Assembly (NCBI GenBank): GCA_965223545.1
Contig: OZ245006.1
Location: 301,954-365,953 of the forward strand
Direction of reading: 5' to 3'
Source: Planctomycetota bacterium
GTDB lineage: Bacteria > Planctomycetota > UBA1135 > UBA2386
DNA: 64,000 bases
Shown: piece after piece, positions 1 through 49,195 of the stretch
Layout of the letters: every line of letters starts with the position of its first letter
Numbering within the stretch: position 1 is the first letter of the stretch
The notes under the pieces: model-generated
Seen by the model: only the letters and a program-made list of their open reading frames with translations
Databases searched by the model: none
What the model was told of the DNA's origin: nothing
Made by a program: the position numbers and the translations under genes

Positions 1-497
1 ACGCCACCATCAGCAAGGAGATCGGTGACCTGCAGGCTGTGCTGGACGCCGTCGGCACCCGGCGCGTCTTCTACGCCGGCCACAGCATGGGCGCCGCCGT
101 CGGTGTGTTGTGCGCCGCGCGCGATCCGCGGCTGGCGGGCTTGATCTCGCTCGCCGGCATGGTGCACGTCGCCGAGTTCATGCGCCGGCTGTTCGGCCAC
201 CTGACGCCGGACCGCGACGTGATGCTCGACAAGCCGCACTGCCCGCTGACCAGCGCGTTCTTGGCCGACGCCGAGGCGATCGGCGACGTGCTGGCGGCGG
301 CCGCCGAGATCGCCCAGCCATGGCTCTTGGTGCACGGCACCGCCGACGAGCTGGTGCCGCTGCGCGACGCCGAGGACGCGCGCGCCACTTGCCCAAGGGC
401 CGAGCTGTGGACCATCGCCGGCGCCGACCACCGGTTCACCGGTGTCGAGGACGCGGTCGGCGCGCGGGTCGCCGCCTGGGTCGCCCGCCACGCCTGA
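1..497 (+). CDS. alpha/beta-hydrolase fold protein, 5'-truncated at the window edge; possibly type II thioesterase-like
   Basis: In-frame ORF running off the window start. It has a GHSMG nucleophile-elbow motif and a downstream Asp/His region (LLVHGTADELVP ... DHRF). It lies immediately upstream of the NRPS. Confidence 0.6.
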   Translation, partial: ATISKEIGDLQAVLDAVGTRRVFYAGHSMGAAVGVLCAARDPRLAGLISLAGMVHVAEFMRRLFGHLTPDRDVMLDKPHCPLTSAFLADAEAIGDVLAAAAEIAQPWLLVHGTADELVPLRDAEDARATCPRAELWTIAGADHRFTGVEDAVGARVAAWVARHA

Positions 498-499
498 CG

Positions 500-560
500 A
501 CTGTCGAGAAATCCGACGCCGCAGCAGCGGGGTTTTTGAGCGACCTGCGCCCGCGCGAAT
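500..560 (+). terminator. Weak stem-loop followed by a T-run (gccgcagcagcggggttttt) downstream of the hydrolase gene
   Basis: Short GC stem followed by TTTTT, seen directly. The stem is only 4-5 bp. Confidence 0.25.
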
Positions 561-625
561 GCCGACATCAAAGGACACCGGCACTCCTGCGGGGGCGCCG
601 GCGCTCGACCCTGGTGCCGCGTAGG

Positions 626-3600
626 ATGGCCGACCCCCAGCTGCAACCCGACGTGCAAGACGCGTACGGCCTGTCCCACTTGCAGGCCGGCATGCTGTTC
701 CACGCCCAGTCGGCGGACCGGCCCGGGTTCGACGTGGAGCAGATCGTGCTCGAGCTGCGCGGTCCCCTGGACCGGGCGCGAATGCGGCGCGCCTGGCAGA
801 CCGTGGTGGCGCGGCACGCGGTGCTGCGCACCAGGATCCGGTTCCACGAGCTGCGCGAACCACGCCAGGAAGTCGTGGCCGCGGTCGACGTGCCCTGGAC
901 CGAGCACGACGGGCGGGGCGGCGCGTTCCCGCTGGACGAGCTCTTGCACGCCGACCGCACGCGGGGCTTCGACCTCGAGTCCGCGCCGCTGATGCGCTGC
1001 ACGCTGGTGCACCGCGGCGCCGATCGCGCCGAGCTGATCTGGACGCTACACCACATCATTCTCGACGGGCGCTCGTTCCCGCTGGTGCTGCGCGAGGTGT
1101 TCACGGTGTACGCCGCCGAGGACGGTCCGGCGCCGCAGCCCGACCTTCCGCCGTACCACACCTACATCGATTGGCTGGGCTCCGTCGACCACGAACAGAG
1201 CCGTGCGTTCTGGACCGAACGGCTGCGCGGCTTCAGCCAGCCGACCGCACTGCCCCTGACCTCCTTCCACCGCAGTCCACAACCCTCGACGATCGAGCTG
1301 ACGGCCACCTTGACCGCGGCCGAGACCAACCAGCTCGAGGCCGCCCTGGAGCCGGCCGATGCCTCGCTGAACACCGCACTGCAGGCGGCGTGGTCGGTCC
1401 TGCTGGCCCGTTACGCCGGCGACGAAGACGTCGTGTTCGGCGCCACCCGCGCCTGCCGCTACTTCGACAGCAATCCGCAGGCCAAGGCCATGGTCGGCCT
1501 GTTCATCAACACGCTGCCGCTCCGCGCCCAGCTGCGCGGCGCCACCGTCGAGGACTTGCTGCGGCAACTGCGCACCGACTGGATCGCGCAGCGGCCGGTC
1601 GAGCACACTCCGCTGGTCGACGTGCACCGCTTCAGCGAGCTGCCGGCGGGGACGCCGCTGTTCGAGACCCTGGTGGTCTATGACAGCGAGCCCCTGGCGG
1701 CTCGAATCTGCGGCACCGCCGGCGAGCTCGAGATCGTCGATGCCACGCTGCACGAGCAACCGACCTTCCCCCTGGTGTTGCTGGGCTACGGCGGCGAGCG
1801 CTTGCGGCTCAAGCTGTTGTTCGACGATGGCCGCTTCGAGCGCGGCATCGCCGAGCGGATGTTGGCGCAGGTCGCGGGCCTGCTGCGTTGGATGGCCAGT
1901 GGACTCGAGCAGCCGGTTGCCGAGGCACCGGTGCTGTCGCCGGCCGAGCACACCGAGATCGTCCGCACCTGGAACGACACCGGCGGGGCCCCACCCCGCG
2001 ACCGCTGTCTGCACGAAGACTTCGCCGAGCAGGCACGGCAGCGCCCGCTCGACACCGCCCTGCGCTGCGCCGAGGAGACCTGGAGCTACGCGCGGCTGGA
2101 GGCGACGGCCAATCGGCTCGCCCACCGGCTGCTGCGGGCCGGCGCCGGCGCAGGCGTCCGCGTCGGCATTTGTCTGGAGCGCGCGCCCGCGCTGGTCGCA
2201 GGCCTGCTGGCGATCGCCAAGACCGGGGCCACCTACGTGCCCTTGGACGCCGAGCTGCCCCTCGACCGCCGCCAGTTCATCGCCGAGGACGCGGACCTGG
2301 GTCTGCTGCTGACGCAGCAGGAGCTCGGCGGCGACCTGCAGCCCGGCTGCCCGGTGCTGTTGTTGCACGAGCTCGGCGCGGTGCTCGAGGACGGCCCCGA
2401 CCCCGGCCCGCCGGTGGCCGATCTCGACCCCGACCGCCCGGCGTACGTGATCTACACCTCGGGTTCGACCGGCCGGCCGAAGGGCGTGGTGGTCCACCAC
2501 CGCAGCGCGCTCAACACCATCGACTGGGTCAACGAGACCTACGCGGTCGGCCCGGGCGACTGCCTGCTGTTCGTGACCTCGGTTTGCTTCGACCTCTCGG
2601 TGTACGACGTGTTCGGCGTGCTCGGCGCCGGCGCCTGTCTGCGCATCGCGCGCGCCGGAGAGCTGGCCGACCCCGCGGCGCTGGCAGCGCGGCTGACGAG
2701 CGGCGAGATCACGTTCTGGGACTCGGCGCCGGCGTTCCTGCAGCAGGTCGCGCCGTTTCTGCAACAGCAGTCAGCGCCGCCATCCACCGGCGGCCTGCGC
2801 CTGGTGTTCCTCAGCGGCGACTGGATCCCGGTCACCCTGCCCGAGCGAGTGACGGCGCGTTTCCCCGGCTGCCAGATCATCAGCCTGGGCGGTGCCACCG
2901 AGGCGTCGATCTGGTCCAACTTCTACGCCGTCCAGAATGTCGGCGACCGGTGGCCGAGCATTCCCTACGGCACGCCGATCCGCAACTGCCGCTACCACGT
3001 GCTCGACAGCGCGCTGCGGCCGATGCCAGCGGGGGCCACAGGCGAGCTGTTCATCGGCGGCGACTGCGTGGTCGCCGGCTACCACCGCCGCGACGAGCTC
3101 ACCGCCGAACGCTTCATCCCGGACCCGTTCCACCCAGGCCAGCGGCTGTACCGCACCGGCGATCTCGCGCGCTACGACAGCTTTGGCACCCTGGAGTTCT
3201 TGGGCCGCGCCGACAACCAGGTCAAGGTGCGCGGCTACCGCGTCGAGCTCGGCGAGATCGAGGCCGCGCTCGGCCGCTGCCGCGGCGTCGCCGAAGCCAT
3301 CGTGGTCGCGCCGCGCGACGCCGACGGGACGCGCTCGATCGTCGGCTTCGTCGAGCCCAGCGACCGCGGCGCCGTCGACGCCGATCTGCTGCGCGTGGAG
3401 ATCGAGCGCTGGCTTCCGTCCTACATGGTGCCGGGACGCATCGAGATCCTCGAGCGCTGGCCGCTGTCGCCCAACGGCAAGGTGGACCGCGCGGCCCTCG
3501 AGCGCCGCCCCGGGCACACGGCAAGGGCCCCTTCCGCGCCGGCGGAGACCGACCTCGAGCGGCAGCTGGTGGCGATCTGGTGCGACCTCTTGAACCTCGA

Positions 3601-4675
3601 CGCGATCGGCCGAGACGACAACTTCTTCGATCTCGGCGGACACTCGCTGCGCGCGGCCCAGCTGGTCGCCGAGATCGAGCGACGCCTCGGCGCCCGACTG
3701 CCACTGGAGTCCGTCCTGCAGGCGCCGACCGTCCGCCAGCTCGGCGCCACGCTCGAGCAGGGGCTCGGCACGGGTTCCGGCAGCTCCTTCGTCCACTTCA
3801 ACGCGGGCGGACACCGCGACCCCGTGTTCTTGATCGCCGGAATCGGCGGTCAGGTGTTCATGTTCCGCGAGATGGCGCAGATCCTCGGCGTGGACCAACC
3901 GCTGTACGCCGGCAAGGCGATCGGCATCGACGGCCGCCGCCGCACGCCCGACCGCGTCGAGGACATCGCCGCGCAATACCTCACCGAGCTGCTCGAGCTG
4001 CAGCCCACCGGGCGCTATCGCCTCGGCGGCTACTCGTTCGGCGGGCTGATCGCGTTCGAGGTCGCCGCCCGGCTGCGCGCCAGCGGCCGCGAAGTGACCT
4101 GGCTCGGACTGTTCGACACCCTGGCCCCCGGCTACCCGAGGCGCAAGCCGCTGCCGCAGCGCCTGCGCGAGCATCTCCGCAACCTGCTCGCCGCCGACAA
4201 CGACGAGGCCGGCAACTACCTGCGGGAGCGATTGCACAACATCGGTCGCCGGATTCGCCGCCGCATTGGGATGCGCACCGACATCACCACTCTGCCGGGC
4301 ATGGACGCCCGCACGCAGGATCGCTTCGCCGCGGTCGAAGCGGCGCTCAACCGCGCCAAATGGCGCTATCGCCCCAGCCACAAGCTCGACGTGCCGATCA
4401 CCGTGTTCTGCGCCGAAGAGGGCTTCGATTGGCCGGCGACGACGTTCGACGACCCCGGCCTTGGCTGGAGCCGCTACACCACGGCGGCCGTGCACCACCA
4501 CGCGGTGCCGGGCAGCCACCTCGAGCTGTTCCAAGCGCCCAACGTCGGTCCGCTCTCACAGCGAGTCCGCGAGCAGCTGGCGCCGAGCGACACGGGCACG
4601 CGCGACGAGCATTCCGGCACCCGGGCGCAACAGGTGGCCGCCAACGCCGCCGGTCACTCCTCTTCGATGCGGTAG
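626..4675 (+). CDS. Non-ribosomal peptide synthetase, single module C-A-PCP-TE (about 1350 aa)
   Basis: ATG at 626 is in-frame with the 110..4675 ORF. Condensation motif HHIILDGRSF. Adenylation cores YTSGSTGRPKG, YRTGDL and PNGKVDR. Carrier-protein motif FFDLGGHSLRA. Thioesterase GYSFGG. Stop TAG at 4673-4675. Confidence 0.9.
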   Translation: MADPQLQPDVQDAYGLSHLQAGMLFHAQSADRPGFDVEQIVLELRGPLDRARMRRAWQTVVARHAVLRTRIRFHELREPRQEVVAAVDVPWTEHDGRGGAFPLDELLHADRTRGFDLESAPLMRCTLVHRGADRAELIWTLHHIILDGRSFPLVLREVFTVYAAEDGPAPQPDLPPYHTYIDWLGSVDHEQSRAFWTERLRGFSQPTALPLTSFHRSPQPSTIELTATLTAAETNQLEAALEPADASLNTALQAAWSVLLARYAGDEDVVFGATRACRYFDSNPQAKAMVGLFINTLPLRAQLRGATVEDLLRQLRTDWIAQRPVEHTPLVDVHRFSELPAGTPLFETLVVYDSEPLAARICGTAGELEIVDATLHEQPTFPLVLLGYGGERLRLKLLFDDGRFERGIAERMLAQVAGLLRWMASGLEQPVAEAPVLSPAEHTEIVRTWNDTGGAPPRDRCLHEDFAEQARQRPLDTALRCAEETWSYARLEATANRLAHRLLRAGAGAGVRVGICLERAPALVAGLLAIAKTGATYVPLDAELPLDRRQFIAEDADLGLLLTQQELGGDLQPGCPVLLLHELGAVLEDGPDPGPPVADLDPDRPAYVIYTSGSTGRPKGVVVHHRSALNTIDWVNETYAVGPGDCLLFVTSVCFDLSVYDVFGVLGAGACLRIARAGELADPAALAARLTSGEITFWDSAPAFLQQVAPFLQQQSAPPSTGGLRLVFLSGDWIPVTLPERVTARFPGCQIISLGGATEASIWSNFYAVQNVGDRWPSIPYGTPIRNCRYHVLDSALRPMPAGATGELFIGGDCVVAGYHRRDELTAERFIPDPFHPGQRLYRTGDLARYDSFGTLEFLGRADNQVKVRGYRVELGEIEAALGRCRGVAEAIVVAPRDADGTRSIVGFVEPSDRGAVDADLLRVEIERWLPSYMVPGRIEILERWPLSPNGKVDRAALERRPGHTARAPSAPAETDLERQLVAIWCDLLNLDAIGRDDNFFDLGGHSLRAAQLVAEIERRLGARLPLESVLQAPTVRQLGATLEQGLGTGSGSSFVHFNAGGHRDPVFLIAGIGGQVFMFREMAQILGVDQPLYAGKAIGIDGRRRTPDRVEDIAAQYLTELLELQPTGRYRLGGYSFGGLIAFEVAARLRASGREVTWLGLFDTLAPGYPRRKPLPQRLREHLRNLLAADNDEAGNYLRERLHNIGRRIRRRIGMRTDITTLPGMDARTQDRFAAVEAALNRAKWRYRPSHKLDVPITVFCAEEGFDWPATTFDDPGLGWSRYTTAAVHHHAVPGSHLELFQAPNVGPLSQRVREQLAPSDTGTRDEHSGTRAQQVAANAAGHSSSMR

Positions 4676-4678
4676 AGG
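4648..4678. repeat. 31-bp exact direct repeat, copy 1 (cgccggtcactcctcttcgatgcggtagagg); it contains the NRPS stop codon
   Basis: Identical 31-mer at 6053-6083, seen directly. Confidence 0.85.
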
Positions 4679-4718
4679 CCGGCGAGAAGACGTACTGCCA
4701 GCCCGAACCCACCGCCAT

Positions 4719-4751
4719 GAGCCCGGAGGCACTGTCTCTCCGAGCCTCCGG
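4719..4751. repeat. Palindromic hairpin element (tgagcccggaggc-13 nt loop-gcctccgg); a second copy lies at 47447-47482
   Basis: The same 13-mer and 8-mer arm with similar loops occur at both loci. This one lies just downstream of the ATPase gene on the minus strand. Confidence 0.6.
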
Positions 4752-4829
4752 CGCGGCGGCGACGTTGTCATGTCAGCGGCGTCGCCTCGAGAATGTTGTC
4801 GAAGCTCGAAGATTCGAGGCGCCGGAGGC

Positions 4830-5993
4830 TCACTGGCCCCGCGGCAGATCGAGAGTCATCCTCGATGCTGCCATCGCACGGATCCGCTCGTCCATCGGAT
4901 AGCTGTCTGTCCCGGCGTGCACCACGACCAACTCGTCGAGTGCGAGATCATCGAGCGCAACCCGCATCGAGCGTGTGATCCTCGGAGCTACGGTCCGCTT
5001 GATCTCGAAGCCGAGCTTCCTCCCCCCGTGTAGGGCCAGGAGATCCAACTCCGCGCCTGCGTGGGTCGCCCAGAAATGCACATCCCGCTCATCCAAAGCC
5101 AGGAGGTCGCAAATCTGCTGCAGGATGAACCCCTCCCACGAAGCTCCCACTTTCGGATGACTCTCCAGCGCGTCGATGCCCTCGATTCCGAGTAGGGAAT
5201 GGAGCAGGCCCGTGTCACGCAAGTAGATCTTGGGTGACTTGACTTGGCGCTTCTTGACGTTGTCAAACCAAGGCTGCAGCTGCCGCACTACGAGCAACGA
5301 AGACAGCACGTCCAGATACCACTTCGCCTGCTTGTTGCTCACATCCATCGAGCGCGCGATCTCGGACGCATTCCAGGTCTGACCGTGGTAGTGCGCCAGC
5401 ATCATCCAGAACCGACGCAGAGTTGGCGCCGGGGCCCTGATGCCGAACTGAGGGACGTCACGCTCCAAGAAAGTCGTGATGAAGTCTCGCCGCCACGCCA
5501 CGCTGGCCGCCGCGCCACGAGCTAGGAAAGAGCGCGGGAAACCGCCGCGCACCCAGAGCTTGTCCAGATCCCTACCCGCGACCTCGTCGACACCGAATCC
5601 GGGCAGCCAGTAGTACGCGACCCTACCGGCAAGCGACTCGGAGGATTGTTGCAGCAGGTCCGGAGAGGCACTTCCCAGGATCAGGAACCGGGCCGGCTTG
5701 CGCGGTCGATCGGCAAGGACTCGGAGGACTGAAAACACCTCGGGCAGACGTTGCACCTCGTCGAGAACCACCAGACCCCGCAACCGGCGCAACCCCAACA
5801 TCGGGTCGGCGAGGCGGGCAAGGTCCGCCGGGTTCTCGAGGTCGAAGTGGGTCACCTGCCCCCGCCGGCGCTCCGCGACCGCTCTGGCGATCGTCGTCTT
5901 GCCAACCTGCCTCGCCCCGAGCACGGCCACTACCGGATTGTCTCGCAACCGCCATTCAATGGCGCGCAAGTGCCTGCTCCGGACAATCATCAA
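4830..5993 (-). CDS. AAA+ ATPase with C-terminal DUF4143-like domain (AAA_14 family)
   Basis: Walker A motif GARQVGKTT. It has the typical ATPase plus DUF4143 layout at about 387 aa. Its composition is lower-GC than the rest of the window. Confidence 0.75.
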   Translation of the reverse strand: MMIVRSRHLRAIEWRLRDNPVVAVLGARQVGKTTIARAVAERRRGQVTHFDLENPADLARLADPMLGLRRLRGLVVLDEVQRLPEVFSVLRVLADRPRKPARFLILGSASPDLLQQSSESLAGRVAYYWLPGFGVDEVAGRDLDKLWVRGGFPRSFLARGAAASVAWRRDFITTFLERDVPQFGIRAPAPTLRRFWMMLAHYHGQTWNASEIARSMDVSNKQAKWYLDVLSSLLVVRQLQPWFDNVKKRQVKSPKIYLRDTGLLHSLLGIEGIDALESHPKVGASWEGFILQQICDLLALDERDVHFWATHAGAELDLLALHGGRKLGFEIKRTVAPRITRSMRVALDDLALDELVVVHAGTDSYPMDERIRAMAASRMTLDLPRGQ

Positions 5994-6052
5994 CCTTGAA
6001 AATTAGCCCTGTATCGACCAATTTTCCAGGTTCGCCCTTCGGGGGCTGCAGG

Positions 6053-6083
6053 CGCCGGTCACTCCTCTTCGATGCGGTAGAGG
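6053..6083. repeat. 31-bp exact direct repeat, copy 2; it contains the stop codon of the minus-strand PQQ-propeller gene
   Basis: Identical to 4648-4678. Confidence 0.85.
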
Positions 6084-7411
6084 TGGGTCTTGGTGCGCAC
6101 CAAGAGCGCGCTGTCGTGCACTGCCGGAGACGCCATGCAGCCGGCGTCGAGCGTGTTGCGCGCGAGTTCGACGTACTCGTCCGCCGGCTCGATCACCACC
6201 GCGCCACCGTCTCGATCGAAGTAGTAGACCCGGCCCGGGGCCGCCAGTAGCGACGCGCAGTGCGGCGCCCCGAGGCGCTGGTACCACAGCCGTTCTCCCG
6301 TCTCGGCGTCGACGCAGCTGGCGATGCCCGAGTCGCTGACCTGGAAGATCCGCCCGTCGACGAACACCGGCGAAGGCATCGTGGGAACGCTGCGCCGCGC
6401 GCGCCAAACGACGTTGGCCTCGGTCACGTCACCCTGTCCCTCCGGGCGGACGGCCCAGAGCTCCGGCCGCATGAAGCCGGTGTTGAGGAACAGCAGCCCA
6501 TCGCCGGTGATCGGCCGCGACGACATCGAGAAACCGGGATGCTGCACCTTCCACAGCTCCTCGCCCGTTTCCGGATCGTATGCCACCGTCGCGCGCGCGC
6601 CGCTACTGATCACCCGCAGCTCATCGCCGACCGTGATCCCCAGCGGAGTGCTGTAGGCCTTGCGCAAGTCGGGTGGCAGCGAGCCGAAGTCCACCGACCG
6701 ATCGCGCCGCCACAGGGTCTCGCCGGTGGCCGGATCCAGCGCAACCACGTACTGGACGTCACCGCCGTCCATGTGCAGCACGAGCCGACCGGCGATCAGC
6801 GCGGGCGAGGACCCGGGTCCTTCCATGTGATCGCAGTGCAAATCGCGGCGCTGCCACACGACTTCGCCGCTGTCGCCATCCAGGCACGCGGTGCCGTAGG
6901 TGCCGAAGTGCAGGAACACGCGGGCGCCATCCGTCACCGGTGACGGCGACGCGTAGCTGTTCAGCGCGTTCTTCGGCTCCGGGTCGTCGATCGTGAACAC
7001 CTGTCGCTCGACCGCCAGCGCGCCATCCTGCAGATCCACGGCCAACGCCCACAACGCCCGGCCGCCGTCGGTGGCGGTGGTCATCCACGCCCGGTCCCCG
7101 GCGATCACCGGCGACGACCAACCCTCGCCGGGCAGCGGAGTCTTCCAGCGCACGTTGCGCTCTTCACTCCAATGCAGCGGCAGCGTGGCGCCGGTGTGCC
7201 CCTGGCGCGAGGGACCGCGGAAATCCTCCCAAAGGGGCTCCTGCGCCACGGCTGTTGCGGCCAAGAGCAACGGCCACGGGCCGATCCGAGCGGGCGCGAT
7301 CACCGCGGCATCGTAGACCGGCAGCCGGTGCACTGCCAGGTCGCGAGGGCGCGCCCTTTGCAAACACGGCGATCGGCACCGCCGAACACCTCCGTCTACG
7401 ATCGATCCCAT
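6059..7411 (-). CDS. Secreted PQQ-like beta-propeller repeat protein (BamB-like fold)
   Basis: Signal-peptide-like N-terminus (LLLAATAVAQEP). Repeated patterns such as 'ALDPATGETLW' and 'AYDPETGEELW' are characteristic of PQQ enzyme repeats. The start is ATG at 7411, though a downstream GTG is also possible. Confidence 0.7.
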   Translation of the reverse strand: MGSIVDGGVRRCRSPCLQRARPRDLAVHRLPVYDAAVIAPARIGPWPLLLAATAVAQEPLWEDFRGPSRQGHTGATLPLHWSEERNVRWKTPLPGEGWSSPVIAGDRAWMTTATDGGRALWALAVDLQDGALAVERQVFTIDDPEPKNALNSYASPSPVTDGARVFLHFGTYGTACLDGDSGEVVWQRRDLHCDHMEGPGSSPALIAGRLVLHMDGGDVQYVVALDPATGETLWRRDRSVDFGSLPPDLRKAYSTPLGITVGDELRVISSGARATVAYDPETGEELWKVQHPGFSMSSRPITGDGLLFLNTGFMRPELWAVRPEGQGDVTEANVVWRARRSVPTMPSPVFVDGRIFQVSDSGIASCVDAETGERLWYQRLGAPHCASLLAAPGRVYYFDRDGGAVVIEPADEYVELARNTLDAGCMASPAVHDSALLVRTKTHLYRIEEE

Positions 7412-23947: not shown

Positions 23948-26941
23948 ATGGCCCGCAGGGAAGACCAGCTGTTCATCCGCTTCCGGCGCCACGGCGACGC
24001 CGACGCGCTGGCGTCCGTCTTCGATGCCACCGCACAAGAGCTCCTGCGCCTCGCGCGGCATCTCGCGCCGGACGACGCCGCCGAGGACTTGGTCCAGCGC
24101 ACCTACCTCGACGCGATCCAGCACGCCGACCGCTACGACGCGAACCGCGGCGTCGTGCCGTGGCTGTGCGGCCTGCTCGCCATCCACGCGCGCCGTCATC
24201 GGCGCGCCTTGCAGCGGCGCAGGAAGGGCAACCAACGCCTGCGCGAAACCCCGCCGAGACGGACTCCGGATCCCGCCGCCACGGCGGAGAGCGCGGAGCT
24301 CAGCGCGGTGGTCCGCGCCGAGATCGCCCGCGCCGGCTCCCCGTACACCGAAGTACTGCAGCTGCAGCTCGAAGAGGGGCTCAGCGCGCGCGCGATCGCC
24401 GAGCGCTTGGGCCGGCCGCCGGGCACGGTCCGCACCCAGCTGGTGCGGGGCATCGACCGCTTGCGCCAACGGCTCGTCGGGTGCGCGCCTGCCACAATCG
24501 CCGTCACGACGGCTTCGACACACCAAGTGGCACCACTGCGCGCGGCCGTTGTGGCGGCGGCGCGGCGCGCGGGCCCATCGCTCGTTCCGGCCTCCACTGC
24601 CGCACTCGGAGCCCTCGCCATGAAGAAGCTCGCCCTCGCGATTCCGCTCGTCTTCCTCGCCACCCTGGTCGGGTGGTGGGCGATACCCACACAAGCCCCC
24701 CTGCAGCGCAGCGACCCGTCGCCGGACACCGCCGACCTCGGCGCCGCGACCGTCGGCAGCGCGCGCGACAACCGCGCCGCCGGGGCAACGCCGACCGCGC
24801 GACGGGCCGTCTCGCCCGCCGGCGCGCCGCGCACTCCGGCGCCGCGCCCGCTTCTCGCACGAGTCGTGGCGCTCGACGAGACTCCCCAGCCCGAGCGCTT
24901 CATCGTTGTCCGCGACGCCGGCCGACGCCTGGCCTCCGGCTGGACCGACGCCCGCGGTGAGGCGCGCTTCGACGACGTCCCCGAGAGCGCTCGGCTGCAG
25001 TGCGGTCCGGTGACCGTTTCGGCGACCGACGCCATTCGCAGCACCGACGCACCCGTCGTCGTGGTCCTTACCATGCCCGCCGGCAAGGCCGTCCGCGGGC
25101 GCGTCGTCGACGCCTTCGACCAGCCGGTCGCCGGCGCCGCCGTGCTGGGCTGGGGTGGCGGCGACCGCGACGACGGGCAGCCACTGACCCGGTCCGGCGC
25201 CGACGGCCGTTTCGAGGTCGACGAACTCCAGTCCAAGGTGATCGAGGTGCGCAAGGACGGCTTCGAGGTCGGCTGGAGCGGGTTGCTCGCGCAGGGCGCG
25301 GACGTGACGGTGCGACTGCGGCCGAACGACCGTCACTTGAGCGGCATCGTGCTCGCGCCCGACGGATCGCCGGCCGCCGGCGCCCGCGTCTTCGTCTTCG
25401 CCTACCTCGACCGCCCGGTCACCCACGGCGACAGCGGCGGTCGCAACTTCGAGGCCGCGTTCGACGCCGACGACCGGGGGCGCTTCGCGATTGGTTGGCT
25501 GCCCGCGGGCTCCGGCCACGTCGTGGCGACGCCCGGCACCGTCGACGCGAACACCACCCCGGTGTGGGCGGCGATGACGGAGCTCGGACTGAGCGGATCG
25601 ACGCGCGCCGCGCTGACTTTGCGGGGGGTCGCGACCGGCTCGGTCCGCGTGACGATCGCGGACGAGCACGGTGCGCCGATGCAGCGCGCGGTCGCGCGCA
25701 CGCGCGCCTCCGGAGTTGTCTTCGGCATGTCGGTGCCGATACGTGCCAGTGGGCAGACGAACGCCGAAGGGGTCGCCACGATCGATGGCCTGGTCGCGGG
25801 CCCGCACGTCGTGACGGTCTACCGCGGCAGCGACCGCCAAGAGCGGACCGCTGAGGTCGCTCCCGGAAGAACCACCGAGCTCGCCTTTCGCTGGGAACCA
25901 GCACGGACCTTCGCCCTGGAACTCGTCGATCCGGCGGGTCATCCGCACGCGCGCTGGCGCGCGCTCCTGCGCGGCGGCGGCCACACTACCGGAACAATCC
26001 TGTCGACAACGGGCGAGGACGGCATCGCGGAGTTCGAGGGACTCGCCGAAGACGTCTCCTACTCCCTGGTCGTTTTTGCCCCCAACCAGCCCATTCACCC
26101 GGTCGCACGCCGCGACGGCATCGATGCGGACACGGGGCGGATGCGAATGCAACTCGACGAGTCGCAGCTCCAACCGCGCAGTCTCCGTGGCCAATTCGTC
26201 GCCACCGACGGCCCGGTCACCGGCGAGGCAAAGCTTGTGCCGCTGGGCGGCGGGCTGCAGAACACGGCGGAACTCACCGACGGCGCGTTCGCGTTCGACG
26301 ACATGCCTCCGGGCCGCTACCGCCTGTTCCTCGACGCCACGGACCACGTCATGGACGCGCGCGAAGTGGAGATCTCTCCCGGCGCCGACACCGAGCTGCC
26401 CGCAGTAACCGTCGTTGCCGCGGCCAGGCTACGGGTCGCGTGCCCGGGACTCGGCGTCCAAGACGCCGACAAGCTCCGGGTCGCACTCGCGCGCACCCAC
26501 CCGGCGTTCGAGCTCACACGCTCCTCGGAGCAGGCCGCCGAGTGGCGCTGCGGCCACGCGATGCACCCCGGCACCTACCGGCTGTTGGTCTACGGCACCG
26601 ACACGCTCCCATTGGACATGGAGGTCGAGCTGCGCCCGGGCGACCAAGTGATCCAGTTCGAGCTGCCGGGGACCGCGACTCCGGTGGCGCTGCGCGCCCG
26701 GCTCCAAGACACGGACTACGGCGCCATCGCCCGCGGCGAAGTGGAGATCGAGGGCAACGGGGTTGCGATCCGCGAGCGGTTCTTCGGCCACTTCGACGAC
26801 ATCGAAGAGCAGCTCGCCATCCGCCGCTTCGGCCTCGCGCCCGGATCCTACGAAGTCACGGTGCGCGGCATGAAGGGCGAGACGTCGCAGACGATCGAGG
26901 TGGGAACAGTTGCGCTCGACGTCGATCTGGCCGTGCGCTGA
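23948..26941 (+). CDS. ECF (sigma-70 family) sigma factor fused in-frame to a TM helix and a large extracytoplasmic Ig-like / carboxypeptidase-regulatory-like repeat region (997 aa)
   Basis: Region 2 (DLVQRTYLDAIQHADRYDANRGVVPWLCGL) and region 4 (LSARAIAERLGRPPGTVRTQLVRGIDRLRQRL) are in the first about 180 aa. There is no in-frame stop before MKKLALAIPLVFLATLVGWWAI, a TM or signal-like segment. CarboxypepD_reg-like units follow, for example GRVVDAFDQPVAGAAV...ADGRFEV. Confidence 0.65.
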   Translation: MARREDQLFIRFRRHGDADALASVFDATAQELLRLARHLAPDDAAEDLVQRTYLDAIQHADRYDANRGVVPWLCGLLAIHARRHRRALQRRRKGNQRLRETPPRRTPDPAATAESAELSAVVRAEIARAGSPYTEVLQLQLEEGLSARAIAERLGRPPGTVRTQLVRGIDRLRQRLVGCAPATIAVTTASTHQVAPLRAAVVAAARRAGPSLVPASTAALGALAMKKLALAIPLVFLATLVGWWAIPTQAPLQRSDPSPDTADLGAATVGSARDNRAAGATPTARRAVSPAGAPRTPAPRPLLARVVALDETPQPERFIVVRDAGRRLASGWTDARGEARFDDVPESARLQCGPVTVSATDAIRSTDAPVVVVLTMPAGKAVRGRVVDAFDQPVAGAAVLGWGGGDRDDGQPLTRSGADGRFEVDELQSKVIEVRKDGFEVGWSGLLAQGADVTVRLRPNDRHLSGIVLAPDGSPAAGARVFVFAYLDRPVTHGDSGGRNFEAAFDADDRGRFAIGWLPAGSGHVVATPGTVDANTTPVWAAMTELGLSGSTRAALTLRGVATGSVRVTIADEHGAPMQRAVARTRASGVVFGMSVPIRASGQTNAEGVATIDGLVAGPHVVTVYRGSDRQERTAEVAPGRTTELAFRWEPARTFALELVDPAGHPHARWRALLRGGGHTTGTILSTTGEDGIAEFEGLAEDVSYSLVVFAPNQPIHPVARRDGIDADTGRMRMQLDESQLQPRSLRGQFVATDGPVTGEAKLVPLGGGLQNTAELTDGAFAFDDMPPGRYRLFLDATDHVMDAREVEISPGADTELPAVTVVAAARLRVACPGLGVQDADKLRVALARTHPAFELTRSSEQAAEWRCGHAMHPGTYRLLVYGTDTLPLDMEVELRPGDQVIQFELPGTATPVALRARLQDTDYGAIARGEVEIEGNGVAIRERFFGHFDDIEEQLAIRRFGLAPGSYEVTVRGMKGETSQTIEVGTVALDVDLAVR

Positions 26942-27080
26942 GGGGCGGCGGGCAAACGCGAAGCGCAGTCAAAGCGCAACAGCGCAACATCACAACGATA
27001 GGGCATGGTGGTTGGTTCCCCCCGTCCAAGGTCCCCGGTCGCACCGCCCGCGGCCGTCGAGCCAGGTTAGACTCGACGCC

Positions 27081-28973
27081 ATGGCACACACACCGACAGT
27101 CCATGCTCTCCTGGCGACCTCGATCCTCGGGATTATTGGAGACGTCCGCTCGCAGGGCGACGTATGGGTCCTCGGGCCGCCCAATGGCATCGATGACACC
27201 GCAGCCTTCCAGAACGCCATTTCTGGTTCGACTGAGACGACACCGACCTTGATCACGTTCGCTCATCCGGGCACCTATCGCTTCGGTCCAGTCGCTGGCG
27301 ACGCGCAGGACCCCTTGTTCGAAATCCATGGGTTCACCGACCTCCAGATCACTGCTGTCGCGGGCGTCACGATCGAGCTCTTTGGCTATGACCGAGTGAA
27401 GGGAAGCTCGAAGGACATCTTTGAGCTCAGCGGCTGCAACAGCGTCACGATCTCGGGTGCCGATGCCACCAACCCTCTCGTGTTCGACATGGAGCCAAGC
27501 TCCGGCGGATCGAACGGGCTGCCGTGGTTTCAAGGCACCCTACATGACATCGACCTCATCGGTGGGTTCGCCACGATCCGCATCACGGACCCCGACTTCT
27601 ACCTGCCAAGCGGTGTGCAGATTGCGGAACCTTGGAGCGCCCGTCCATTCATCAACGGATATCCACATGCGGAACGAACGGTTTGGGGTGCCGCTCATAG
27701 CGGCGTGATCCTCCCGGCACCTCCCCCCATGGCGACCCATCAGGACGTAACACTGAGCTATGCCGCTTCTGCGAGCGCCCGCCTGAGTACTTGGGCGACC
27801 GGCGACCGCATCGTCGTCTCGCTGGGGGACAGCGAACAAGCGCTGTTCCAATGCCGCAACCTGAGCGGAATCCCGAACTCCGATCTCGAGTTCACGAACA
27901 TCGAAGTCCGTTGTTTCGCCGGAAAGACACTCATGCTCGGCAACACACACGGCGTCACGCTCGACAACTACAACGTCCGCCCCGCATCGACTCTCCGGAA
28001 GCTCTCTTCGGTCCGAGACGGGGTCTCCGGACGGCCGACAGGAGAGGTCGTCATTCGCAACTGTGAGTTCAAAAAATGCGGAGACGACGCCATTCAGATG
28101 GGCTCCCAACCGGTCGCGCGCGTCGTCAGCTATGACGCCTTGCTGTCCCAGGCAGTGATCGCACTCGCGACTCCGGCGGGGCAACAACATCCCAACTACA
28201 AGCCAGGTTGGGCTGTCGAAGCACGGCCAGCGTCTTGGTCCCGCTCGAATCGCGAGACGGCAACAATCCTCTCGGTCCAGAACTCCGGCGCTCAGCAAAC
28301 CCTGACCCTGTTGAACGAGACGCCCGGGTTCGCCGCGGTCATGAAGCCCGACGCACTGTTGTTCGCCGTCTCCCAGAACTGGAGTTCCTGCCTCGTCGAT
28401 TCGTGCGTGATCAAGAGCGTGCGTGGTGGCGGGATCAAGCTGCGCAACGGCCCGATCACGATCAGGAACAGCCAGATCTTCAAGACGACGTCCTACGGGA
28501 TCTTCCTCGGCGGCGGTACTCCATCGGCCGGATCGAAGTACCCGCTCGGTGGAAACGTCTATCCCCCTGATTCCTCGGAGATCACGAACTGCGACATCCA
28601 GCACGCCGGTCCCCGAGGCAACATTCACCCCTCCATGCACGCGTCGGTCTACATCGGCGTTGCCGATGACGTCGTCAACGGCCAGTGGCAGAACCCAACC
28701 GCCTCGTGCGACGTGATCACGAACGTCCTGGTCCAGAACAACCGCTTCATCAGCGACCGCACCTACGCTCGGGGCGGTCTGTACTGTCACGGCATCGGTG
28801 GCGCGACCGGACTGCAGCTGGTGAACAACGACTTCCAAGACCTGGGAGACAGCACGACCTCAAATCTGCCCTGGCAGTACGGGGTGTACACCAGCGACTG
28901 CGTCATCACCACTGACACCGGAAACACCTACACGAACTGCTACAAGCCCTCGTTCTTTGGCGGGTGCCAGTAG
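27081..28973 (+). CDS. Right-handed parallel beta-helix repeat protein (pectate-lyase-like fold); compositionally atypical and lower-GC
   Basis: Repeated beta-helix rungs, for example NSVTISG, ITIRNSQI, VITNVLVQNNRF and LQLVNNDF. GC and GC3 are markedly lower than in neighbouring genes. There is no clear signal peptide. Confidence 0.6.
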   Translation: MAHTPTVHALLATSILGIIGDVRSQGDVWVLGPPNGIDDTAAFQNAISGSTETTPTLITFAHPGTYRFGPVAGDAQDPLFEIHGFTDLQITAVAGVTIELFGYDRVKGSSKDIFELSGCNSVTISGADATNPLVFDMEPSSGGSNGLPWFQGTLHDIDLIGGFATIRITDPDFYLPSGVQIAEPWSARPFINGYPHAERTVWGAAHSGVILPAPPPMATHQDVTLSYAASASARLSTWATGDRIVVSLGDSEQALFQCRNLSGIPNSDLEFTNIEVRCFAGKTLMLGNTHGVTLDNYNVRPASTLRKLSSVRDGVSGRPTGEVVIRNCEFKKCGDDAIQMGSQPVARVVSYDALLSQAVIALATPAGQQHPNYKPGWAVEARPASWSRSNRETATILSVQNSGAQQTLTLLNETPGFAAVMKPDALLFAVSQNWSSCLVDSCVIKSVRGGGIKLRNGPITIRNSQIFKTTSYGIFLGGGTPSAGSKYPLGGNVYPPDSSEITNCDIQHAGPRGNIHPSMHASVYIGVADDVVNGQWQNPTASCDVITNVLVQNNRFISDRTYARGGLYCHGIGGATGLQLVNNDFQDLGDSTTSNLPWQYGVYTSDCVITTDTGNTYTNCYKPSFFGGCQ

Positions 28974-45656: not shown

Positions 45657-45783
45657 GGGTTGGATGCGCGGCTGGCGCGGGGCGGCGCGAGGGCTCTGAC
45701 GCCGGCATCTTGCGGGATATTCTGCAAACGCGCAACGCCGCGTGTCACCGGCCACGCCATCGGCGCCACAAGGAGATGGAGCC

Positions 45784-47301
45784 GTGGACAAACCAACCGC
45801 AGTCGGCGCCGGAATGCTGTGCGGCGTGCACGCGATTCCCGTGCGGGTCGAAGCGACCCTGCGCGGCAGCGGCACGCCGCGCATCCTCGGCAGCGTGGAC
45901 ACCGTGGTGCGCGAGGCCTACCACCGATTGCTGACCGCGTTCCCCGCCGACGGGCTGGAGCCACCGCGCGGCTGCCCGACGATCAACTTCTCGCCGGCGA
46001 ACCTGCGCAAGACCGGCAGTGGGTTCGATCTGCCGATGGCATTGGCCCTGGCCGGCGCCGCCGGCCACTACCCGAGCGATCGCGCGGCGACCGTCACCGC
46101 GCTGGGTGAGCTGGGCCTGGACGGCGCGGTGCTGCCGGTGCGCGGGGCGGTGCCGGTGGCGATCGCCGCCGCCCGGACCGGCCGCCGCGACCTGTTGCTG
46201 GCCGAGCGCGACGCGCGGTTGGCCGCTCTGGTGCCGGGGGTCCGCGCCTTTGCCGTGGCGCGGCTGGCCCAGGCCATCGCCTGGCTGCGCGGGACCATCG
46301 ACCTGTCGCCGGCCGAGCCGGCGGCGCCGCCCCCGCCAGCCGCGGTCGCCGACCTCGCCGACATCCGCGGTCACGAGACGGCGAAGACCGCGCTGCAGGT
46401 GGCGGCGGCGGGCAACCACAACACGCTGCTCGTCGGGCCACCCGGATCGGGCAAGTCGGCGCTGCTGCGCCGGCTGCCCGGGCTGCTGCCCGCGGCCTCG
46501 CCGGGCGAGCAGCTGGAGATCATGGCGATCGGCTCGCTGCGCGCCGCCGACGGCTGCGCGCCGGCGGCGCAGCGGCCGGTGCGCTGCCCACACCACACCA
46601 GCAGCTTCGTCAGCCTGCTCGGCGGCGGCCCGGAGCTGCGCCCTGGCGAGGTCACCCTCGCGCATCGGGGCGTGCTGTTCCTCGACGAGCTGGCGGAGTT
46701 CCGCCGCGAGGCGCTCGAGGCCCTGCGGCAGCCACTCGAGGATGCAAAGGTCAGCGTCGGGCGGGCGCGCGGAGTGATCCAGATGCCGGCCGACTTCCTG
46801 TTCGTGGCGGCGATGAACCCGTGCCCGTGTGGCTACTGGGGACACCGCGGCCGCGCATGCGTGTGCGGGCCGTCGCAGCGGCGCCGCTACGCGGCGCGGA
46901 TCTCGGGGCCGCTGCTCGACCGCCTCGACCTGCAGGTGGCGTTGCCGCAGCTGTCCGCCGCCGAGCTCGCCCAGCCGGCCGACGCGCGCTGGTCGACCGC
47001 CGCCCTCCGCGCGCCGATCGACACGGCGCGGGCGCGCCAGGCTGCGCGCTCACCCCGGTCGCCGGTGCCCAACAGCCGGCTTGGCGGCGAGCTGCTGGAG
47101 GCGGCCATCGGACCGGACCAGGCCACCCGGACACGCCTCGACGCCTTGGTGCGGCGGCACCACTTGTCCGGCCGCGCCCGGGAGCGCCTGCTGCGGGTGG
47201 CACGGACGGTCGCCGACCTCGACGACCGCGATACGGTCACGGTCGAGGATCTGCTCGCGGCGGCGCGCTTGCGGGGGCTGCATCACTCGCCGACCGAATG
47301 A
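45784..47301 (+). CDS. comM: YifB/ComM-family Mg-chelatase-like AAA+ ATPase
   Basis: N-terminal Lon-protease-like domain. Walker A GPPGSGKS and Walker B VLFLDE. Zn-binding PCPCGYWGHRGRACVC. C-terminal Mg_chelatase_C domain. Confidence 0.85.
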   Translation: MDKPTAVGAGMLCGVHAIPVRVEATLRGSGTPRILGSVDTVVREAYHRLLTAFPADGLEPPRGCPTINFSPANLRKTGSGFDLPMALALAGAAGHYPSDRAATVTALGELGLDGAVLPVRGAVPVAIAAARTGRRDLLLAERDARLAALVPGVRAFAVARLAQAIAWLRGTIDLSPAEPAAPPPPAAVADLADIRGHETAKTALQVAAAGNHNTLLVGPPGSGKSALLRRLPGLLPAASPGEQLEIMAIGSLRAADGCAPAAQRPVRCPHHTSSFVSLLGGGPELRPGEVTLAHRGVLFLDELAEFRREALEALRQPLEDAKVSVGRARGVIQMPADFLFVAAMNPCPCGYWGHRGRACVCGPSQRRRYAARISGPLLDRLDLQVALPQLSAAELAQPADARWSTAALRAPIDTARARQAARSPRSPVPNSRLGGELLEAAIGPDQATRTRLDALVRRHHLSGRARERLLRVARTVADLDDRDTVTVEDLLAAARLRGLHHSPTE

Positions 47302-47355: not shown

Positions 47356-47450
47356 GCTCAGCGCGGCCGAGGCCGCAAACACAAACACGGAGCATTCCGC
47401 GACCCGAGCGTCGGTCGCGGGTCCCGCGGTCGCCGGCGGCCGCGCTGAGC
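47356..47450. repeat. Nested palindromes: gctcagcgcggccg / cggccgcgctgagc arms enclosing an inner hairpin at 47398-47419
   Basis: Inverted repeats seen directly. A third direct copy of gctcagcgcggccg lies at about 47556. Confidence 0.55.
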
Positions 47451-47482
47451 CCGGAGGCCAGTGTTGTCTTCGAGCCTCCGGG
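47447..47482. repeat. Second copy of the hairpin element (tgagcccggaggc-15 nt loop-gcctccggg)
   Basis: Same arms as the 4719-4751 copy. Downstream motif ccggaggctca is also shared; cgagaatgtt recurs in inverted orientation. Confidence 0.6.
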
Positions 47483-47560
47483 AGTTGCGGTATCGAAGTC
47501 CCGGCGACGACGGGCCTTCCGAAAGGTTGTTGCCGCTCGAACATTCTCGGACCCGGAGGC

Positions 47561-49075
47561 TCAGCGCGGCCGCCCGGGTGCGCTGGAGTCGCGAGCTCCG
47601 CTGCTGTCGCGGCGGGTGTCCTCGTTGGTTGCGGCCCCGGCCGCGATGAGTGCATCCAAGGCCGCCGCTGGACCACCGACCAGTTCGGCGTCGCGCGCGG
47701 GCCGGAAGCCCTTTGGGTAGAGCTCGGCCGAGGTGCGGATGCGCTCGAAATCCCTGGCGAAGGCTTCGAACGCGTCGCGCGGGGCGTCGCAGCAGAACGC
47801 CATCGTCGCCTCGCCGACGCGGAACACCCAAACCTGGCAGCGGAAGCGGTGGTGCGCGCCCGCGCGGTCATCCTCGTAGTCGACGTCGATGCACACCGCC
47901 GGTCGGTCGCGGAGGGTGGTGACCCGCCGCCCCATCTCCTGCATCGCCGGGCGGACGTGCGCCAACCAACGCACGACCGTGTCCGCGGCTGACTCGAGCA
48001 TCAGCTGGCGGTCGATCTGGTCGAACGCCAGCAGGCATGCGCTGACCCCGCGGCCGGGGACCTGGAGCAATACGCCGCCCGGCGGCGCGGTGGCGGCCTG
48101 CCACGCCGGGTTGGGCAACCACAGCGCGAAGCGGCCCTCGGCCTCGGCCGCCAGTGCCGACGGGTAGGTCGAGTCCTCGAACGCCATCAGGCGACGCACC
48201 GCCGCCTCCGAAGCGGCGACGGCCACGAGCTGGGCGCCGTTGACCTCGCGGCGCAGAACGCGCGCGGAGGCGTCGACCCATTCGGTGTTGCCGGTGGACG
48301 CCGGGCCCGGGGCGGTGCACAGCTCGACCACCGTGCGGCGCACGCCGTCGATCTCCACTTCGCGCCGGCTGGCCGGGTAGACCGCCCGCTCGACGAACTC
48401 CTCGCGTTCGGGCACGAACAAGCGCACCACGCGCTCGTCGCGGAGCTCACCGTGGTTCTGCCGCATCGCGGCGGCGACGATCAGCGGGAACTGCATGCCG
48501 GTCCGCCAGGGGTGGCGCCGGCGCTGCCGGGGGCGCGCCCCGTGCGAATCGACCACGAGCTCGTCGCCGACCACTTCGCCGCGCACCAACCGCTCCTGCA
48601 GGACCCGGCCGTCCGCCGCCGTGCTGCGCTCGTGGTAGAAGCACGCCAGTGGCACCAAGTCGGCGCTGGCGGTCTCCAGAATCGTCACCGCGGTGGTGCG
48701 GGTGCCGTAGCGGAACTCCCACTCCTCGCCGATGCGCAGCAGCCCGTCCTCGGTCGCGGTCACGGTCGACTGCAATCTGCCGACGACGCGGCCCTCGGCG
48801 TCGTGCACCGCGAACCACTCATCGCGCGGATCCAGGGCGACCGGCACGGGTGCCGCCGCCACCGGCGCGTCCGCCATCGACTCGATCCTCGCCCGGTCGA
48901 AGCCGACGACGGTGCCATCGGCCAACCGGAGCTCGATGTAGCCCTCGGTCTGCTGCTGGATCTCGCCCTCCAGCTCGCCCCCGCCAACCAGCTGCAGCAA
49001 GACGCGCGGCGGCGGATCCTGGGGAGCCGGCACGGCGGAGATCAACGCAACGGCCAAGAGCAGGGGGTTCGGCAT
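47561..49075 (-). CDS. Secreted hypothetical protein
   Basis: Signal peptide MPNPLLLAVALISAVPAP. High GC3. Confidence 0.55.
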   Translation of the reverse strand: MPNPLLLAVALISAVPAPQDPPPRVLLQLVGGGELEGEIQQQTEGYIELRLADGTVVGFDRARIESMADAPVAAAPVPVALDPRDEWFAVHDAEGRVVGRLQSTVTATEDGLLRIGEEWEFRYGTRTTAVTILETASADLVPLACFYHERSTAADGRVLQERLVRGEVVGDELVVDSHGARPRQRRRHPWRTGMQFPLIVAAAMRQNHGELRDERVVRLFVPEREEFVERAVYPASRREVEIDGVRRTVVELCTAPGPASTGNTEWVDASARVLRREVNGAQLVAVAASEAAVRRLMAFEDSTYPSALAAEAEGRFALWLPNPAWQAATAPPGGVLLQVPGRGVSACLLAFDQIDRQLMLESAADTVVRWLAHVRPAMQEMGRRVTTLRDRPAVCIDVDYEDDRAGAHHRFRCQVWVFRVGEATMAFCCDAPRDAFEAFARDFERIRTSAELYPKGFRPARDAELVGGPAAALDALIAAGAATNEDTRRDSSGARDSSAPGRPR

Positions 49076-49195
49076 CACGGGGTCGTCGGGGGTCGATCCG
49101 GTCGAGACCAGAGGGGTCTCTGTTGTGTTCGACGTCAGCGACAGCCCCACTTGAGCGGGTTGGCGCCGGGGGACCCTGTCGGTGCCGCGCGATTC

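Follow-up and report, generated by a model that had tools for sequence, protein, structure and literature searches.

A 64,000-nucleotide stretch of a Planctomycetota genome (contig OZ245006.1 of assembly GCA_965223545.1, positions 301,954 to 365,953; hereafter the window) contains, between two copies of one 31-mer, a 1,374-bp segment with a gene encoding a member of the PADLOC family PDC-S01. We show that this segment is a horizontally acquired, self-contained single-gene cassette. It occupies the position of a former 22-bp overlap between the 3' ends of a non-ribosomal peptide synthetase (NRPS) gene and a convergent gene for a PQQ/BamB-like beta-propeller protein (the PQQ gene), and the 31-bp repeat keeps both genes whole. 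Across phyla, long repeats of target DNA flanking such a gene and its upstream palindrome are a recurrent property of the family. As for the route of entry, we put at about even the chance that these are miniature integrative cassettes lacking an integrase, which enter by a crossover in a short shared segment (Campbell- or att-type).

An exact repeat brackets a foreign gene between two intact neighbors

The window has exactly two copies of the 31-mer CGCCGGTCACTCCTCTTCGATGCGGTAGAGG, at 4648-4678 and 6053-6083, which lie on one strand and agree at every position; 100 shuffles gave no such repeat, so that none is expected by chance. Its edges are sharp, the preceding bases being C (4647) and G (6052) and the following ones C (4679) and T (6084). 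The first copy contains the stop codon of the NRPS gene and the second that of the PQQ gene, a TGA. When a single copy is reconstructed, the two stops fall in a 22-bp tail-to-tail overlap. The ending ...HLYRIEEE* is the native C terminus of the PQQ protein, because all 11 homologues inspected end with HLYRI(E/Q) followed by a short variable tail. An earlier note on this DNA, made from its letters alone, had described the exact repeat, placed the NRPS C terminus in the first copy and the PQQ C terminus in the second, and proposed an insertion into a former 3' overlap of the two genes that duplicated the overlap and left both open reading frames (ORFs) intact. The three observations were confirmed, and the proposal is supported.

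The composition of the insert departs from that of its surroundings, as the same note had stated. Its GC content is 0.635 versus 0.709 for the window, which places it at the 2.8th percentile of equal-sized intervals, and GC at third codon positions is 0.78 in the ATPase gene versus 0.87-0.88 in the NRPS and PQQ neighbors. This gene is the only ORF with a family match between 4679 and 6052, and no second copy of it was found in the 64-kb window. Neither a transposase (DDE, HUH, tyrosine, or serine) nor an integrase is encoded among the ORFs of the insert, and the search for terminal inverted repeats gave none that were significant in the window, both in line with the earlier note, which had seen no such enzyme and only a weak resemblance between the ends. 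Farther out, nine ORFs scanned between 8.3 and 24.1 kb are ordinary genes, and no ORF of the window was found to be related to two integrases encoded on plasmids that carry homologous genes. We also considered whether the tail at the window locus holds PQQ-like "baggage" from a donor, a candidate that was rejected when no significant similarity was found past the 31-mer.

The cassette encodes an ATPase-nuclease preceded by a palindrome

The window protein matches AAA_14 (PF13173, 1.7e-22) and DUF4143 (PF13635, 3.8e-42) in Pfam, as well as the PADLOC PDC-S01 model PDLC04790 (E = 3.7e-83). A Walker A motif (GARQVGKT) lies at residue 25 and a Walker B motif (LVVLDE) at residue 73; the middle region is helical/winged-helix, and the C-terminal part has the PD-(D/E)XK nuclease fold, with E286, D316, and E329-x-K331 as catalytic residues. 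The nuclease and Walker motifs are invariant across a 40-sequence alignment, and the AAA+ part resembles Orc/Cdc6, MuB, and RuvB. The protein is thus an AAA+/STAND-like ATPase with a C-terminal PD-(D/E)XK nuclease domain, belonging to PDC-S01 and COG1373. There is no NCBIfam model for it, and a sequence search of solved structures gave no match. Its closest relative, from a metagenome contig, is 79% identical, followed by thousands at 60-65% from metagenomes and other phyla, and its own protein cluster has one member on one contig. The database protein P0001, at 379 aa, is seven residues shorter at its N terminus than the 386-aa reading, fitting a start at a TTG at codon 8 (window positions 5967-5990). 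The entry probably starts too late, the upstream ATG giving MIVRSRH..., in agreement with the consensus MIxRxRH.

DUF4143 has been listed as a PD-(D/E)XK family of unknown function (PMC3424549). PDC-S01, an ATPase fused to a PD-(D/E)XK domain, ranks fourth in frequency among the defense candidates of prokaryotes and has been transferred repeatedly between domains, although most such candidates are not yet validated (PMC12988326). The PDC models were built from genes embedded in BREX, DISARM, and type I restriction-modification loci, and how embedding happens was left open by the authors (10.1101/2024.01.29.577857). PDC-S01 is a candidate for a role in phage defense. Neither repeats around PDC-S01 nor a palindrome nor mobility of the gene came to light in the searchable literature.

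In nearly all loci of the family, a palindrome of ∼40 bp lies directly upstream of the start codon, with the consensus TACCTTGAAAATTCGGT-TGACAnn-ACCGAATTTTCAAGGTA. Its outer arms are conserved in sequence, whereas the inner arms vary yet remain complementary. The center is often TTGACA, followed 17 nt later by a TAnnnT hexamer and, ∼6 nt further, by the ATG. In a subfamily comprising the window gene and copies on rhizobial plasmids, the palindrome abuts the ATG and a −10-like hexamer lies in the right arm. The window palindrome itself contains a promoter-like sequence (TGGAAA, 17 nt, TAATTT) ending 9 nt before the ATG. When up to two mismatches per half-site were allowed, the paired half-site motif was found 77 times in upstream zones and never in coding or downstream zones. 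From these sequence features, we infer that the palindrome is a symmetric operator enclosing a consensus-type promoter, from which a leaderless or near-leaderless mRNA would be made.

Flanking repeats of target DNA recur across the family

At least 160 loci were collected by scanning species-representative genomes and metagenomes with a family alignment. They come from many phyla, including Acidobacteriota, Planctomycetota, Gemmatimonadota, deltaproteobacterial groups, Spirochaetes, Chloroflexota, and Bacteroidota. For each gene, 600 nt upstream were aligned to 800 nt downstream with a score cut-off of at least 25, and same-geometry intervals displaced by 3.2 or 5 kb within the same loci served as controls. 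Flanking direct repeats were present at 17 of 151 loci (∼11%) versus 4 of 214 controls (1.9%; odds ratio 6.7, Fisher p = 1.7e-4). They measure from 19 to about 190 bp, and the period from repeat to repeat is mostly 1351-1598 bp. The target is different in every repeat-flanked locus and is usually the 3' end of a host gene or of a tRNA (Table 1). The window repeat, which spans a tight convergent junction, has close parallels, because the repeats of L049 and L035 also lie at tight convergent junctions. These findings show that long repeats of target DNA around the palindrome and gene are a recurrent family property across phyla. They also strengthen the suggestion of the earlier note that the insert is a small non-autonomous element or came by an uncharacterized integration route, and uphold its view that 31 bp is too long for a duplication made by an insertion sequence (IS).

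The ends of the unit are variable. In repeat-flanked loci, the spacer between repeat and palindrome ranges from 0 to 290 nt and that between stop codon and repeat from 0 to 300 nt, with no conservation. Two pairs of copies that are 84-85% identical and lie in unrelated contexts delimit what is shared: the homology of L004/L088 begins ∼30 nt left of the palindrome and ends ∼55 nt past the stop, and that of L132/L133 extends from the palindrome to 3 nt past the stop, which amounts to 1.21-1.28 kb. Because such diverged copies in different contexts share only the interval from palindrome to stop, there are no defined transposon ends. No second palindrome or terminal inverted repeats were found at the far end in any locus, and paralogues in one metagenome-assembled genome are only 82% identical. 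Low copy number, lack of terminal inverted repeats, and variable ends are not those of IS. A search for the same protein in different contexts yielded two candidates, P0081 and P0029, each on several contigs, all of which proved to be the same locus.

Many repeats are mosaics of a perfect core and a homologous but diverged extension; those of the window and of L060 are perfect and sharp-edged. Three further ideas about the unit were rejected. A constant circle length was suggested by a period of 1351-1352 bp in four unrelated loci, but the metagenome set ranges from 1363 to 1598 bp; that L035, L010, L067, and L049 have a period of 1351 or 1352 bp, although their repeats, coding sequences, and spacers differ in length, is a coincidence. 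Cruciform or hairpin targets were not supported, strong folding being seen only in L049 and L056 (fold z-scores versus controls, p = 0.35). Finally, a search for circular contigs gave none, the ten contigs of 1.3-1.9 kb having no terminal overlap.

Separately, in L004 an orphan tRNA-Lys-like 3' half, from anticodon loop to discriminator base, lies on the minus strand at ∼1920-1965, 19 nt past the cassette. The locus has no complete tRNA gene, and the sister cassette in L088 is without the tRNA fragment.

Table 1. Coordinates and content of the features of the window locus, and target segments repeated around PDC-S01 cassettes at other loci
Locus	Feature	Position	Strand	Content
Window	NRPS module	110..4675	+	Condensation, AMP-binding, PP-binding, Thioesterase (C-A-T-TE); last 9 codons inside repeat copy 1
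Window	Direct repeat, copy 1	4648..4678		NRPS stop TAG at 4673-4675; unused copy of last 7 codons and stop of PQQ gene on opposite strand
Window	Inserted segment	4679..6052	-	1,374 bp; GC 0.635
Window	Palindromic tail element	4718..4832		End overlaps ATPase stop codon; REP/MITE-like
Window	PDC-S01 gene	4830..5990	-	386 aa from family-conserved ATG (MIxRxRH...)
Window	Family-conserved palindrome	5992..6032	-	Directly upstream of start; AACCTGGAAAATT-N15-AATTTTCAAGGTT on gene strand; inner arms decayed
Window	Spacer between palindrome and repeat copy 2	6033..6052		20 nt
Window	Direct repeat, copy 2	6053..6083		Working 3' end of PQQ gene (LYRIEEE*); stop is reverse complement of 6059-6061
Window	PQQ/BamB-like beta-propeller gene	6059..7333	-	424 aa; identical to P0121; start approximate (~7333)
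L023	Repeat	924-2430 (cassette locus)		109 bp, last 36 codons of cas1; embedding in CRISPR-Cas locus
L035	Repeat			3' end of ECF (extracytoplasmic function) sigma factor gene; convergent gene ends 4 nt past distal copy
L049	Repeat			Entire 98-bp spacer of convergent regulator/methyltransferase pair
L143	Repeat			Last 35 codons of UDP-N-acetylglucosamine dehydrogenase gene
L124, L139	Repeats			5' ends of downstream genes
L010	Repeat			3' part of tRNA-Asn, from anticodon stem-loop; 46-49 nt
L096	Repeat			3' part of tRNA-Glu, from anticodon stem-loop; 46-49 nt

One locus points to a target segment carried by the incoming DNA

The two repeat copies of L143 are not equivalent. The first 80 of 104 positions are identical and the six differences all fall in the last 24, a clustering with a probability of ∼1.5e-4 by simple arithmetic, (24/104)^6. 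Frame and stop codon are intact in the two copies (TGA versus TAG). GSDKVVTL is the ending encoded by the distal copy, now displaced, and GAEKVVTL that encoded by the copy completing the gene. Among seven orthologues fetched, the four closest (82-86% identical overall) end with S(D/A)KVVTL, three of them with SDKVVTL; the target gene has a single further record, which proved to be this filled locus again. Because the displaced copy has the orthologue consensus and the completing copy is the diverged one, the incoming DNA would have carried its own version of the target 3' end. As judged from these sequences, this is the pattern left by attP x attB-type or Campbell-type integration and not by a decayed staggered-cut duplication. 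A target segment borne by the cassette before integration is thus supported by L143; the window repeat, being perfect, is compatible with either origin. With L143 as the guide, the repeats are probably att-like shared segments and not target-site duplications from staggered cuts.

Tandem arrays may point in the same direction, for two loci combine triple repeats with tandem cassettes. L117 (610-4375) begins with a decayed ATPase gene that has its own palindrome. A 173-bp repeat follows, then 934 bp of unrelated sequence, a second copy of the repeat, an intact cassette, and a third repeat. The L117 repeat resembles repetitive extragenic palindromic (REP) sequences, so that it may occur throughout the genome and not be duplicated target DNA. 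In L173, an Aminobacter plasmid, the repC 3' end is present in three diverged copies, between which lie an integrase gene and the ATPase cassette.

Plasmid homologues are numerous (265 records, 45-49% identity) and come mostly from Rhizobiales and Rhodobacterales. The plasmid gene often sits in a variable slot at the repC 3' end of repABC backbones; in related backbones (L171-L173, L176, L177, L181, and L182), this slot holds an ATPase cassette, a toxin-antitoxin pair, or a recombinase, and a backbone tyrosine integrase flanks it. On plasmids of Agrobacterium and Rhizobium, the cassette lies 47 nt beyond an integrase gene. An association of the cassette with an integrase on rhizobial plasmids was nevertheless rejected, because the integrase in L173, L172, and L182 is part of the backbone and also occurs where the slot is filled by toxin-antitoxin genes. 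The 72 ORFs lying within 5 kb of 20 repeat-flanked cassettes matched 56 families, and the top 25 of these include no strong match to an integrase or transposase. Tyrosine recombinases are therefore sometimes at hand, but they are not part of the cassette unit.

Other arrangements were noted in passing. In L174 (Sphingobium plasmid pKN1), a homologous ATPase gene (3465-4637) lies on the opposite strand within an F-type tra operon, where traH and traF adjoin it across gaps of 93 and 15 nt. In L167, a metagenome locus (1-3661), a nucleotidyltransferase/HEPN toxin-antitoxin pair lies between two divergent AAA_14/DUF4143 genes. A second family member is also found within a few kb in L013, L025, and L063.

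How the cassette may enter its targets

In the reading to which we give roughly even chances, the cassette would be a miniature integrative element that lacks a recombinase of its own. A copy that is circular or can circularize, and that already bears a short stretch of a target 3' end, would recombine with the chromosome there (Campbell-type, attP x attB-like). The shared segment would then be found on both sides, the cassette-borne copy completing the host gene and the native end being displaced. The crossover would be made in trans, because recombinases are sometimes near but not part of the unit, either by a tyrosine recombinase that the cell has elsewhere or by RecA over short identity, and it would not be end-specific transposition. 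Once inserted, the gene would be autoregulated through the palindrome and retained because it is either a host defense or selfish. Several observations weigh against this reading. About 89% of the 151 loci have no repeats, and neither an excised circle nor an empty site was seen at the window or any other locus. For the window there is no near relative in which to look for an empty site, because the closest PQQ homologue is only about 61-62% identical (the named homologues are from Planctomycetota). The perfect, sharp-edged 31-mer fits a fresh target-site duplication equally well, and an identity of 31 bp is near the lower limit for RecA-dependent crossover. Moreover, the target differs from locus to locus, so that each requires a first event that the Campbell model leaves unexplained. 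Near most cassettes no recombinase was identified, and the neighbor-ORF summary, restricted as it is to the top 25 of 56 families, may have missed weak integrase matches.

The main rival is self-transposition, in which the ATPase-nuclease would bind its own palindrome and cut or nick the target strands at loosely coupled positions 19-190 bp apart; the cassette would be joined in, and gap filling would then produce a target-site duplication of variable length (31 bp here). Transposable elements of this class would be new, and we regard this reading as unlikely. It draws on the facts that the ATPase-nuclease is the only gene always present, that its nuclease motif, in a PD-(D/E)XK fold, and its Walker motifs are invariant in the alignment, that the AAA+ part is like Orc/Cdc6, MuB, and RuvB, that a conserved palindrome marks one edge of the unit, that the repeats of the window and L060 look like fresh duplications, and that no other recombinase is seen nearby. 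However, we know of no strand-transfer activity for a hydrolytic PD-(D/E)XK nuclease, and the unit has no conserved second end, terminal inverted repeats, or second palindrome. Copies are single or few per genome, identical proteins were never seen in two contexts, and neither a diverged functional copy as in L143 nor triple repeats with tandem cassettes would be expected from target-site duplication. Passive capture, by template switching or illegitimate recombination, with survival of those insertions that spare their neighbors and spread of a useful gene by homologous recombination, would need no dedicated machinery and would explain undefined cassette ends, varying spacers between repeat and gene, and mutually unrelated targets. 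Repeats that regularly stop at gene boundaries are what selection against disruption would give, mosaic repeats fit later homologous recombination between relatives, and a consensus-like promoter with a leaderless start, as predicted from the sequence, should allow expression in any host. We nonetheless consider this explanation distinctly unlikely, since a generic process is not gene-specific and repeats are enriched ∼6-fold at this gene over other positions in the same loci; the tRNA repeats starting from the anticodon stem-loop (L010, L096, and the orphan half in L004) also look site-specific.

Two explanations treat the window locus as something other than the arrival of a single-gene unit. 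An integrase-bearing island could have entered the NRPS/PQQ junction via a 31-bp att site and been reduced to the ATPase gene, a relic comparable to cis-mobilizable elements (CIMEs). Repeats of target-gene and tRNA 3' ends are typical of att sites, and tyrosine integrases do adjoin the cassette on some rhizobial plasmids. We judge such a remnant very unlikely, because the same palindrome and gene recur in ∼20 unrelated loci with periods of 1.35-1.6 kb, a result on which independent deletions would not converge, and the integrase of L173, L172, and L182 is a backbone gene found also beside toxin-antitoxin genes. Alternatively, the three-gene order could be ancestral and the repeat a product of chance or local gene conversion, for which the missing empty site could be cited. 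This is effectively refuted: chance does not account for the repeat, the insert departs in composition from its neighbors, the pattern recurs in many unrelated loci, and the nearest relatives of the ATPase (79%, then 60-65%) are from metagenomes and other phyla. Of all these readings, the crossover in a shared segment remains the one we favor.

A structured tail and other features of the window

From repeat copy 1 to the ATPase stop codon, the 151 nt in between are predicted to form a strong RNA fold (z = −3.75). They include a palindromic element (4718-4832) that is 71-79% similar to a second copy at 47444-47563, and only these two copies occur in the window. The second lies between the convergent genes 45742-47301 (+) and 47561-49150 (-), and at both sites the end of the element (...CCGGAGGCTCA) supplies the TGA stop of the minus-strand gene. 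The element, ∼120 nt long, has the ends TGAGCCYCCGG...CCGGRGGCTCA in its two occurrences, each at the 3' end of a minus-strand gene. It looks like a terminator element of the kind of REP sequences or miniature inverted-repeat transposable elements (MITEs). Because a similar copy exists at 47444-47563, part of the "insert" is a REP/MITE-like element of the host genome or of the donor lineage, and the two copies suggest either a later invasion or a related donor. The earlier description of the insert as an ATPase gene plus a hairpin repeat thus holds for the sole gene but not for the hairpin, which is not unique to the insert.

The window has a second low-GC stretch at 26300-28300 (GC 0.61-0.62, below the ATPase insert), with candidate ORFs at 26910-28973 (+) and 27540-28838 (-). 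Long repeats flanking this stretch were not found.

Relation to known mobile elements

Like att-flanked integrative elements that lack an integrase, such as CIMEs, and like tRNA-targeting genomic islands, the cassette is flanked by repeats containing a target 3' end, with the element copy restoring the gene, shows tandem accretion, and has no internal recombinase. Intact target 3' ends in the repeats are seen in the window, for both genes, and in its relatives, whereas an integrase inside or next to the element is not, adjacency being limited to some rhizobial plasmids. CIMEs, which are related to streptococcal integrative and conjugative elements, arise by deletion and depend on a single helper integrase and a single att site. 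Unlike them, the cassette always consists of one specific ∼1.3-kb gene, its targets differ per locus, and no helper was found.

The cassette shares with integron cassettes the single-gene unit, an imperfect palindrome with conserved outer and complementary inner arms, and the possibility of tandem arrangement. Here, however, the palindrome is upstream and contains a promoter, there are no RYYYAAC/GTTRRRY cores and no IntI or attI, and integron insertion does not duplicate tens of bp of target. Small size, flanking duplication, and domain types recall IS, MITEs, and Tn7, in which TnsA is a PD-(D/E)XK protein and TnsC an AAA+ protein. In contrast to these, the cassette has no DDE, HUH, tyrosine, or serine transposase, no terminal inverted repeats, a low copy number, and a duplication of 19-190 bp that is neither short nor fixed; instead of several near-identical copies, the 64 kb contain one. 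Free-standing homing endonuclease genes are likewise lone nuclease genes with a patchy distribution, placed between conserved host genes that are undisrupted, but homing leaves no target duplication and uses one cognate site, whereas the cassette has a 31-bp duplication and targets that differ between loci.

The protein family itself is already known, the window protein sharing with PDC-S01 its models, both Pfam domains, and the ATPase plus PD-(D/E)XK architecture. PDC-S01 is reported as extremely common, as having moved across domains, and as sitting inside other defense systems (PMC12988326; 10.1101/2024.01.29.577857). Its treatment in the searchable literature concerns the protein and its abundance only and mentions no palindromic promoter/operator, near-leaderless start, or target repeats; we could not find there the habit of a discrete, integrase-less cassette with its own operator/promoter.

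PDC-S01 was recognized through its embedding in other systems, and the route by which it gets there had no explanation. The window offers a clean example of a general answer, in which an operator/promoter and a near-leaderless ORF form a plug-and-play cassette and duplication of tens of bp of target allows neighboring genes to survive even when they overlap. Several questions now become testable: which enzyme integrates the cassette (its own nuclease-ATPase, an integrase that it hijacks, or RecA), whether the gene serves defense or is chiefly selfish, and whether the palindrome is a binding site. It is improbable, in our estimate, that PDC-S01 is a previously unrecognized class of autonomous mobile elements in which the ATPase-nuclease, through its own upstream palindrome and the target, drives insertion with long, variable duplications that spare neighboring genes. 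Were this true, the fourth most common "defense system" would be primarily a selfish, self-inserting gene, and its embedding in operons would be explained. For annotators, the findings advise caution, as counts of PDC-S01 among defense systems may in part tally a mobile element.

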